Shown piece after piece: positions 1-3,000 of a stretch of DNA of 4,102 bases. The stretch is taken from the IMG/VR virus record IMGVR_UViG_2698536387_000013. The stretch is one strand, 5' to 3'. Source of the stretch: a virus (taxonomy: Duplodnaviria > Heunggongvirae > Uroviricota > Caudoviricetes). Position 1 is the stretch's first letter, and each line of letters begins with the position of its first letter. The position numbers were made by a program.

Positions 1-3000
1 ATCAAAAGCCGGTGAGCGTTATCGCCGGGCTGTGGCGCTTATTGTTCGCCAGCAGCGGCTGAAATTAAGCCTGTCCGGACGGCTGGCAATAAAAATTATT
101 GCAGAACCACCGGATAAGCGCCGCCGTGACCTGGACAACATTCTGAAAGCACCGCTGGATGCGCTGACGCATGCGGAAGTGCTCATTGATGACGAGCAGT
201 TTGATGAAATCAATATTGTGCGCGGTCAGCCTGTGCCAGGTGGACGGCTGGGCGTGAAGATTTACGAAATCAGAGGTGGTAACGATGGCGCGTGATATCC
301 AGATGGTTCTTGAGCGATGGGGGGCATGGGCAGCAAATAATCATGAAGATGTAACATGGCCCTCGATAGCTGCTGGTTTTAAAGGATTAATCCCGACTAA
401 AGTGAAATCACGTCCTAAGTGTTCTGATGATGACGCCATGATAATTTGTGGTTGTATGGCACGATTAAACAAGAATAATCAGTATTTGCACGATTTGTTG
501 GTGGATTATTACGTAGGTGGAATGACATTTATGGCTCTTGCACGTAAGCATAGATGTTCTGATGGGCTTATTGGTAAAAGGCTTTATAAAGCGGAAGGTA
601 TTATTGAAGGAATGCTTATGGCTCTGAATGTCCGGTTAGATATGGATATGCGGTAGGGATATATAGTGATGAGGGTTATGTTTTCTGTGTTTATAATTAA
701 CATGTTTATTTTTTGATGGTCATGTATTGTGGAAGGTAGATAAAATGTTGCCTGGTGAATTGAAAATATTGATAATCAATCTTCATCATTAAATAAAAGG
801 AGTGCTTATGTGGATTGTGTTAGTACTGTCACTGTCAACTCTCAGTTGGCATAAGGTAGTGGCTTTTTCATTGTTGACGGTGTCTGTTGTCCTGGCTGTG
901 CTTAATGATATTATTGATTGGTCGGTGTTATTTTTTGTTGCTACAATCGTTTTTTTTATTATTTTGAAGTTCAACTGGAAATATAACGCCTGGGCTAAAT
1001 CTATATATGAAGTTGGCATAGTTTTATCAGCCATAGCATTATTTTTCCATCTATGGCCAGGGTTTCACAATCCTGTAGTGCTAAATTCTGTTACTGTTGG
1101 CCCTCAAAGTACTCCCTATACAATGTATTTTAATTTTGATAAAGCGCTGGTGCCATTTTTGTTAGTCCTGTGTACATCTTCTTTGTTTAAAAAAGAAGTA
1201 AAATCAGAAGTGTCTTTGTGGAAGTGGGGGGCTCTGTCGCTCTCTGTTCCTCTTATCCTGTTTTTGGCTGTTTTTTTTGGTGGATTAAAGCCAGAGATTC
1301 ATTTTCCTGAGTGGTTGCCAGAGTTTATATTGGCTAATTTGTTTTTTGTGTCTCTGGCAGAGGAATCATTATTTAGAGGGTATATTCAATCACGGCTATC
1401 AGAAGTAACGTCTCCATTGGTTGCATTAATTGTGGCGGCTTTGTTGTTTGGTTTTTATCACTATTCAGGTGGTGCTTTACTTGTATTATTTGCCACGTTA
1501 TCTGGTGTTGTGTATGGATTGTCATGGATGTGGAGTGGGCGTTTGTGGGTTGCCACCCTTTTCCATTTTGGTTTGAATCTGTGTCACTTGTTATTCTTTA
1601 CCTATCCATTTTTAAAACATAATTGATTTTTTCTATGGTTTTAAATTTATAAGACTGAAAAATAGCAGGACGTGACATTTGCATGAAAAATATGCACGGC
1701 AAAGCATTTACGTACGTAAAAAATCAGGTATGCTGTTAAGAGTGGTTATTTCGCCGCATAGCTTGACCCCGCCTCTGAGCGGGTTTTTTGTGCCCGCAAA
1801 GTAGCGCAGTGCGTTAAATGTGCTGGTAGTTATTAATACAGGTCTTTCAGCTTGCTGGCTTTTTCGACAAGAGTTATTGGTGTGTCACGTTAACCGGAAA
1901 GGGTAAAAAGACATGCTGAAACAGCAGGATATGACAGAAACCGCCAGAGTTGTGTTTGATGAATTAAGCGTCACCGAACCGGCGACGGTCGGGGAGATTG
2001 CGCAGAATACGTACCTTTCACGCGAGCGCTGCCAGTTAATACTGACCCAGCTGGTTATGCGGGTCTGGCAGACTATCAGTTCGGTTGTTACAGACGCCTT
2101 CAGTCCTGAAGGCTTTTTTATTTGTGGTAAATGGGCGGCTGGTGGGTGTTAGCGGCACCTGTCAGTCCTTTGCTTATGTGTTGATGATAATTTACCTTTT
2201 GGGGCTATAATTGAACTAACCAATTGCTAATGAAAGTAAAATTATAATGGTTGTTGTCTGTTCAGTTATCATGGTTTGCTCCCCAATTAATATTTTTCTT
2301 GAAAAGGATACGTTGTCACTTAAGCCCGGCTCAGTCGTTCTGGCCACCAAATGCATCAGGGCGCTTTTCCTTATGCATTATGGCAAAGTTAAAATTTTCG
2401 ATATAAACCATTCCATAGTAAGTCAATATCTGGAAATTCAGCATAAGCTGACAAGAACTCATCTGACTGACGTTCCGCTTTATCTGTCACTGGAACCCAA
2501 CAACCCTGCGTTGGCTGAGGCTTTAATTACCAGCCAGAGATTTTCCGGAGATACCACGGATATGTTTCTTATGATGGCATGCCTGTCGCTGTTTGAATCA
2601 GATGAACGGATATTATTATTTTTAAGTGGATGTTTATCCAGTATAAGTGCCAAAGTCAGGGCGATAATTCAGACAGATATATCAGCAAGCTGGACGCTTG
2701 GTGCGATTGCGTTACGCCTGCATATGAGTGAGAGTTTGTTAAAGATAAAACTGAAAAATGAAGGGCACATGTTCAGTCGCTTGTTGCTGGAAGAGCGGAT
2801 GCGTGTTGCTGTCAATATGTTATGTTCCCGGCATGGATATGGACAGGCTGTAGCAGAAAAATGCGGTTATTCAAGCTGGTCCTACTTTATTTCTGTATTT
2901 CACCGCTATTATGGCTTCCCGCCAGACAGATATGTATCCAGGCAAGGGCTTGATTATTGATTTTCATCTGATTATTATTTTTTGACCCGGCCCTTTAGCT

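Follow-up and report, generated by a model that had tools for sequence, protein, structure and literature searches.

A CPBP-family membrane protein gene beside a small Q antiterminator gene in a lambdoid prophage of enterohaemorrhagic Escherichia coli

The window analysed here, that is the whole 4,102-nucleotide stretch of the IMG/VR record IMGVR_UViG_2698536387_000013, is the late-regulatory region of a lambdoid prophage of enterohaemorrhagic Escherichia coli (EHEC), and all of it is 99-100% identical to prophage DNA in O157:H7 and other EHEC genomes. Its open reading frame (ORF) at 808-1626, directly downstream of the gene for a small Q antiterminator, encodes a membrane protein of the CPBP (Rce1-like) family, and the identity of the gene, its family and its status as cargo are, taken jointly, close to certain. 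The gene quite probably stands upstream of the late promoter pR', in an interval that appears to serve related prophages as a site for exchangeable cargo. The explanation favoured overall, in which the lysogen would express the gene without Q and the product would act in the inner membrane, has a slightly better than even chance of being right; that the product is an active protease with a conserved envelope substrate is a more tentative part of it.

The features that bear on the gene are the following.

285-656, plus strand: Q antiterminator gene, 123 amino acids, small Q21/QuuD type (PF06530, E=8.7e-52)
748-776, plus strand: promoter-like sigma-70 site TTGCCT-17-GATAAT, 31 nucleotides 5' of the start codon, a prediction only
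797-802, plus strand: ribosome-binding site AAGGAG, 5 nucleotides before ATG 808, read from the sequence
808-1626 (stop), plus strand: CPBP ORF (ORF call, PF02517, PGAP annotation)
1360-1377, plus strand: motif 1, EESLFR (E185, E186, R190)
1447-1461, plus strand: motif 2, FGFYH (F214, H218)
1564-1578, plus strand: motif 3, HFGLN (H253, N257)
1707-1743, plus strand: conserved block, putative small-Q late promoter region, from comparison
1768-1789, plus strand: intrinsic terminator hairpin CCCGCCTCTGAGCGGG (hairpin 1768-1783) followed by T6, putative tR'

A CPBP-family protein with an intact catalytic set

ATG 808 is the likely start codon because it follows the ribosome-binding site AAGGAG at 797-802, agrees with the PGAP call (808-1626) and matches the homologues, all of which begin with MW (51 of 51 aligned). 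GTG 802, from which a preliminary description of this DNA had counted, falls inside that ribosome-binding site and is rejected; the residues it listed as E187/E188/H220/H255 are the right ones numbered two too high, and the start at ATG 808 therefore gives E185, E186, R190, H218, H253 and N257.

The preliminary description had assigned the protein to the CPBP/Abi family from the motifs EExxxR, FxxxH and HxxxN in this order and from 8-10 apparent transmembrane segments, and had proposed a hidden Markov model search and a structure prediction as checks; both bear the assignment out, and none of the outcomes that it had listed as refuting was observed. Specifically, the Pfam profile PF02517 matches residues 171-260 with 70.6 bits (E=1.4e-19; profile positions 3-92 of 93), against a gathering cut-off of 22.4 bits, and EESLFR (185-190), FGFYH (214-218) and HFGLN (253-257) occur once each, in the canonical order. 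Across a family alignment of 52 members, E185, E186, R190, F214, H218 and H253 are invariant and N257 is at least 90% conserved. The AlphaFold2 model (mean predicted local distance difference test score, pLDDT, 95.4; predicted template-modelling score, pTM, 0.92) has the polytopic alpha-helical membrane fold of the solved CPBP structures, with the motifs on consecutive C-terminal helices; it contains ten helices, eight of which are 15-29 residues long, in keeping with the 8-10 segments of the preliminary description. By every test that could be applied, the protein is thus a CPBP family member, with its fold and the catalytic set E185/E186, R190, H218, H253 and N257 intact; proteolysis itself is a prediction from sequence. 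Moreover, the alignment and the model contain a conserved loop with beta-strands at residues ~80-120 that is an extra feature specific to the enterobacterial family, and two non-catalytic segments that are invariant in the same alignment, PGFHN and YNFDKALVPF, are kept in the prophage copy.

Other resources add little to this assignment. Sequence searches of the PDB with the single protein and with the 52-sequence profile returned no CPBP chain, and fold comparison alone succeeded. In NCBIfam, only myxosortase and ABC-CPBP models matched, all of them far below threshold, and membership of the myxosortase (Mrt) subfamilies is rejected on these scores (best model 33 bits against a cut-off of 250, the others 19-31 bits against 75-325). 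The protein matches PHROG 13291, a family of unknown function, from end to end, and no PADLOC-DB v2 family matches it at E<=0.1.

The gene as such is not new, contrary to the preliminary description, which had not recognised it as a described prophage gene: RefSeq already gives the right family name, and a study from 2009 deals with it, so that it is known as an object with one doubtful published phenotype. As a discovery it adds little. What is new here is where it lies with respect to pR'-tR', the cargo hot spot next to Q, its near-clonal distribution restricted to EHEC, the structural argument against a released protease, the diverged Q-linked variants under purifying selection and the ~50%-identical chromosomal orthologues.

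The slot between Q and the putative late promoter

The upstream ORF was correctly named as a Q antiterminator by the preliminary description (PF06530, as listed above); its product is 83% identical to QuuD of DLP12 and distantly matches the phage 21 Q structures 6P18/6JNX (E=1e-7). Equally well founded were the reading of the CPBP gene as a moron next to Q in a lambdoid prophage and the remark on AT-rich DNA. The guanine-plus-cytosine (GC) content is 37.7% in the ORF and 28.5% in the spacer between Q and the ORF, against 47-53% in the flanks; the gene lies between conserved modules, is present in some and absent from other related phages, and has a promoter-like site of its own.

The canonical cassette has the order Q gene, pR', sigma-dependent pause element, terminator tR' and late genes. 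In the window, the block at 1707-1746 reads TTTACGTACGTAAA...TATGCT GTTAAGAGTGG and is composed of the palindrome TTTACGTACGTAAA (1707-1720), the promoter-like TTTACG-16-TATGCT (TATGCT at 1729-1734) and the -10-like AAGAGT (1738-1743), a candidate sigma-dependent pause element. The block is conserved in 10 small-Q loci regardless of the cargo that intervenes. The hairpin behind it, ~140 bp 3' of the ORF and the first terminator after it, is conserved in all compared loci (numbered here with the prefix L), and its homologues are annotated terminators in phages SfV and Ayreon. In the phages with a lambda-type Q (L015, L026), the place of the block before the hairpin is taken by TTGATT-17/18-TAAATT or TATGCT, followed by AACGAT/AATCGT, which we take to be a promoter closely resembling lambda pR'. 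The Shiga toxin (Stx) 2 prophage L020 has no cargo in this place: its block comes immediately after Q and before stx2. Because block and hairpin are shared by small-Q phages with different or no cargo, and because they occupy the lambda-like pR' place of L015 and L026, we infer that small-Q phages have their late promoter and its pause element in the block and tR' in the hairpin; the Q-to-pR' interval would then be a cargo hot spot, filled here by the CPBP gene. Unlike stx-type cargo, which lies downstream of pR'-tR', the ORF on this comparison lies upstream of block and hairpin. Of the Q-to-lysis slot named in the preliminary description, the Q-adjacent cargo position therefore stands, although the gene most likely sits between Q and the late promoter and terminator, not inside the Q-antiterminated late operon.

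Other cargo is found in the corresponding interval of related loci. A signal-peptide-bearing protein of 166 amino acids is encoded between small Q and block in L016 (2986-3486), and unrelated cargo separates small Q from block and hairpin in L018 (45-2437), L019 (314-2421), L023 (50-1192) and L024 (1-1447); this cargo includes a nucleoid-associated protein alongside a hypothetical gene, a set of three hypothetical genes, and the porin NmpC, and most of it is on the opposite strand. Reverse-strand genes occupy the slot in L018, L019 and the Stx2a phage WGPS2, and the porin gene nmpC occupies it in phage ev017, PA-2 matching as well. DLP12 is cut off after quuD by IS5/nmpC and is uninformative for the pR' comparison.

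The 14-bp palindrome TTTACGTACGTAAA is perfect and overlaps the -35 position of the putative small-Q late promoter. It varies symmetrically among phages (TTTACGATCGTAAA, ACGCGTACGC, GCGGTCCGC; L016, L018, L019, L020, L023, L024), as if the dyad were preserved, and could be an operator, part of a Q-binding element or a hairpin.

In L026, whose Q is of the PF03589 type, a 55%-identical CPBP gene for 287 amino acids (4001-4864) follows a lambda-like pR' (TTGATT-18-TATGCT, AATCGT) with its terminator, the two in the region 3761-3856, and precedes the holin gene; compared with the window, it is on the other side of pR'-tR'. The position is thus not universal, and the cassette moves between Q-proximal sites.

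Distribution, expression and possible function

The CPBP gene is present as a single near-identical copy in EHEC lineages. Among 5,426 complete E. coli genomes it occurs in 574, nearly always once per genome, and the copy is at least 99% identical in 548 of these; the serotypes include O157:H7, O55:H7, O145:H28, O111:H8, O26:H11 and O103:H2. The flanking block is present in 1,942 of the genomes and relatives of Q in 3,676, the particular Q allele with its 151-bp spacer (657-807) never occurs without the CPBP gene, and no E. coli copy outside this prophage slot was detectable in the genomes searched. A tblastn search of 50,697 deposited phage genomes found no homologue, and the other viral CPBP proteins retrieved from BFVD were no more than weak matches (all E>1e-3); therefore, no sequenced free phage informs the function.

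In a large protein collection, prophage variants of 84, 83, 62 and ~58-59% identity were found in E. coli, E. albertii and Shigella, each directly downstream of a PF06530 Q gene (linkage in L007, L009 and L011-L014), and the genes 3' of them differ, being stxAB in one case and holin genes in others. The 84% variant lies between a small Q gene and stxA/stxB (RIP + SLT_beta) in an E. coli Stx prophage (L007 5001-7833, L008 610-3442), so that the CPBP gene can directly adjoin Shiga toxin genes on their upstream side. Ratios of nonsynonymous to synonymous substitution (dN/dS) of 0.12-0.26 and zero indels against the variants of 84-58% identity, together with the co-divergence of the accompanying Q proteins (94-79% identity), show that selection maintains the gene and that it has long shared its history with this Q type.

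Full-length orthologues of ~50% identity are stand-alone single chromosomal genes in Enterobacter, Providencia, Dickeya, Serratia, Pantoea, Hafnia, Photorhabdus and others, and share both the catalytic motifs and the invariant segments PGFHN and YNFDKALVPF. Their surroundings, compared in Enterobacter, Dickeya, Providencia and Salmonella, are unrelated, non-phage settings with no conserved neighbour.

As to expression, the site TTGCCT-17-GATAAT (748-776) scores 9/12 and is proposed, from sequence, as the cassette's own promoter; like the terminator at 1768-1789, it is a consensus match only. The 84% and 83% variants (L007, L012) score 10/12 at 4941-4969 and the 62% variant has ATGACA-17-TATTGT at the equivalent position, that is, the promoter-like sites are conserved in close variants and differ in distant ones. 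In the 2009 study, whose two published primers match the window at 825-845 and 1300-1319, the transcript was detected by reverse-transcription PCR in broth cultures and was 2.7-fold up with HEp-2 cells, with no induction by T84 cells; a promoter-like site of its own fits transcription in uninduced cultures. The same study reported that deletion of the CPBP gene abolished the EHEC block of interferon-gamma-induced STAT-1 phosphorylation, with only partial complementation and only partial transfer to HB101.

Under the explanation favoured overall, the position upstream of pR'-tR' would mean that the gene is transcribed in the lysogen from its own sigma-70 promoter (748-776), independently of Q, with termination at the shared hairpin, and after induction additionally by read-through from the early-right operon. 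The protein would insert into the inner membrane and there cleave or capture a membrane-embedded or membrane-proximal peptide or protein conserved among Enterobacterales, by which E. coli would gain an activity encoded on the chromosome in Enterobacter, Providencia, Dickeya, Serratia and others. That it works as an active protease whose substrate is a conserved component of the host envelope or membrane is a tentative proposal with somewhat less than an even chance; such a substrate is preferred because many Enterobacterales carry the close family as a stable chromosomal gene, because the non-catalytic surfaces are conserved and because the E. coli copy is found only in this slot. The loss of the STAT-1 block would then come about indirectly, either because the protein processes some other factor or because the deletion is polar on psrA.

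Several points speak against this explanation. Proteolysis is a prediction and the substrate hypothetical, and the orthologues, having no conserved neighbour, give no clue to the latter. The putative late promoter is placed by comparison of loci; the -35 element of the block is weak (TTTACG, and TAACGC in some phages), the promoter-like site just before the ORF could itself be pR', and in L026, with its lambda-type Q, the CPBP gene is downstream of pR'-tR', so that its position is not fixed. Lastly, the STAT-1 effect, the sole reported phenotype and a partly complemented one, does not follow from a cis-acting membrane protease.

Next after the conserved-substrate proposal ranks a protective role, in which the cargo would make the lysogen immune to a membrane-targeting bacteriocin or microcin, or would keep superinfecting phages out at the level of the inner membrane. 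The preliminary description had likewise suggested immunity and exclusion, alongside envelope remodelling. In favour of a protective role, relatives carry classical conversion genes between Q and the late promoter, such as the nmpC/lc porin gene of ev017 and PA-2, the CPBP gene is expressed in the lysogen according to the 2009 study, and virus-encoded CPBP proteins exist, including a 'CAAX protease self-immunity' protein of an uncultured siphovirus (a weak BFVD match, E>1e-3). The catalytic motifs are intact, and these motifs are reported to be required for Abi-type immunity (Kjos et al. 2010). Set against this are the lack of any PADLOC match, the absence of bacteriocin or toxin genes from the window and about 15 related loci and of close homologues from the 50,697 phage genomes, and the ~50%-identical orthologues, whose stable single-copy place on the chromosome and strong conservation outside the catalytic motifs are not what fast-diversifying genes for immunity or exclusion show. 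A literature search for CPBP/CAAX proteases in phage defence found nothing relevant. On balance, a protective role is rather unlikely.

It is slightly less likely still that 748-776 is the Q-responsive pR' and that the CPBP gene lies in the constitutive pR'-tR' leader, at the position of lambda 6S RNA or StxS, so that it would be made in every lysogen by transcripts ending at 1768-1789. The canonical cassette order would accommodate this, as would the conservation of the 748-776 site in close variants, the invariable company of the Q allele with its spacer, and the run from that site to the hairpin at 1768, which contains no terminator besides weak matches inside the ORF; pR' is, in addition, constitutive and terminated at tR' in Stx lysogens. 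However, Q proteins of 83-85% identity (L016, DLP12) are followed by no similar sequence, yet the block at 1707-1743 is shared, and cargo on the opposite strand stands between Q and block in L018, L019, WGPS2 and ev017; moreover, in L020 the block comes directly after Q, ahead of stx2. These comparisons favour the block over 748-776 as pR'.

A purely scaffolding or regulatory role, in which the protein would bind a membrane partner such as a sensor kinase or a cell-wall hydrolase, in the manner of S. aureus SpdC or group B Streptococcus Abx1 and not by proteolysis, is improbable: a partner might bind at the conserved non-catalytic loop segments, but catalytic residues invariant in 52 sequences, with purifying selection on the gene, are unexpected for a pure scaffold, and SpdC has reportedly lost the canonical catalytic residues.

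A direct role as a host-directed protease is very unlikely, since the predicted structure, with its eight long helices and without a soluble domain, is that of an integral membrane protein and argues that a released protease cannot be the right explanation; the rise with HEp-2 cells and the confinement of the gene to EHEC-type lineages would agree with such a role, but complementation was partial, T84 cells gave no induction, and the deletion lies 620 bp upstream of psrA, which encodes a regulator of GAD and type III secretion, making a polar or indirect effect plausible. The STAT-1 phenotype is striking and needs re-examination because structure prediction speaks against the released-protease explanation. 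The relevance for EHEC lies in a gene that is intact, under selection and near-identical across the main serogroups, and that shares its prophage module with the PsrA regulator and type III effector loci. More generally, genes in Q21-type Q-pR' intervals can be expressed without induction, which is useful for judging which prophage genes are active in the lysogen.

Neighbouring genes and comparison with known systems

The remaining features of the window are these.

First gene in window order: rusA, 3' part
1913-2152: TrmB-like short ORF, frameshifted according to PGAP
2247-2960: AraC/YdeO-like regulator gene (AraC-type PsrA)
2989-3238: three tRNA genes
3315-3495, plus strand: match to the small RNA STnc100 (Rfam RF02076)
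Last gene in window order: DUF1737/SASA esterase gene, start only

The TrmB-like ORF matches phrog_331 (E=5.7e-32) and is a frameshifted pseudogene in this prophage lineage according to PGAP, whereas relatives have an intact ORF of 65 amino acids at this position. A single operon or system of the CPBP gene, the TrmB-like ORF and the AraC gene was considered and rejected, as block and terminator lie between them and they occur independently, the CPBP gene being found without the two downstream genes and these without it; the TrmB-like pseudogene and the AraC-type PsrA are a separate module. The first tRNA (2989-3064) is Met (anticodon CAT) according to ARAGORN and tRNA-Ile according to PGAP, and belongs, as the usual ileZ-type tRNA, to the ileZ-argN-argO cluster found ahead of stx in Stx phages; the window contains no stx gene. 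The STnc100 match, between the tRNA cluster and the esterase gene, scores 123.6 bits against a gathering score of 47 (E=8e-28). No known Rfam RNA was found across 657-1912, and the tR' region folds no better than shuffled sequences (z=-1.2), so that no small RNA is claimed there. The same proteins in the same gene order are found in an EDL933 assembly. In the EDL933 RefSeq assembly NZ_CP124741.1 (L030) the prophage region is on a 286,775-bp record labelled 'plasmid unnamed2', which looks like an assembly or labelling artefact and not a real plasmid location.

Among characterised CPBP proteins, the type II CAAX prenyl endopeptidase Rce1 (Methanococcus maripaludis, 4CAD) shares only 16% identity with the prophage protein, which has the extra loop at ~80-120; bacteria are not known to have prenylated CAAX substrates. 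S. aureus SpdC/LyrA (6U0O; 14% identity) is a partner of the glucosaminidase SagB and reportedly works without catalysis, whereas the motifs are fully intact in the prophage protein and no SagB-like gene is nearby. The likeness to the Abi/CPBP self-immunity proteins of Gram-positive bacteria (PlnI, SkkI) extends to the family, the motifs and the form of a small stand-alone membrane protein on mobile DNA; conversely, the prophage gene has a Gram-negative host and conserved chromosomal orthologues, and no bacteriocin-like or export gene adjoins it in the window or the ~15 related loci examined.

In position, the nearest counterpart is the lc/nmpC porin gene of PA-2, DLP12 and ev017, likewise a low-GC membrane protein gene in the slot from a QuuD/Q21-type Q to block and hairpin. 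The porin, however, is an outer-membrane beta-barrel encoded on the opposite strand, whereas the CPBP gene is co-directional with Q and predicted to encode an inner-membrane enzyme. The stx and other late-operon morons are likewise Q-proximal cargo of EHEC lambdoid prophages, and the 84% variant lies just upstream of stxAB (L007); in contrast to them, the CPBP gene lies upstream of the putative pR'-tR', so that neither Q antitermination nor prophage induction should be needed for its expression.

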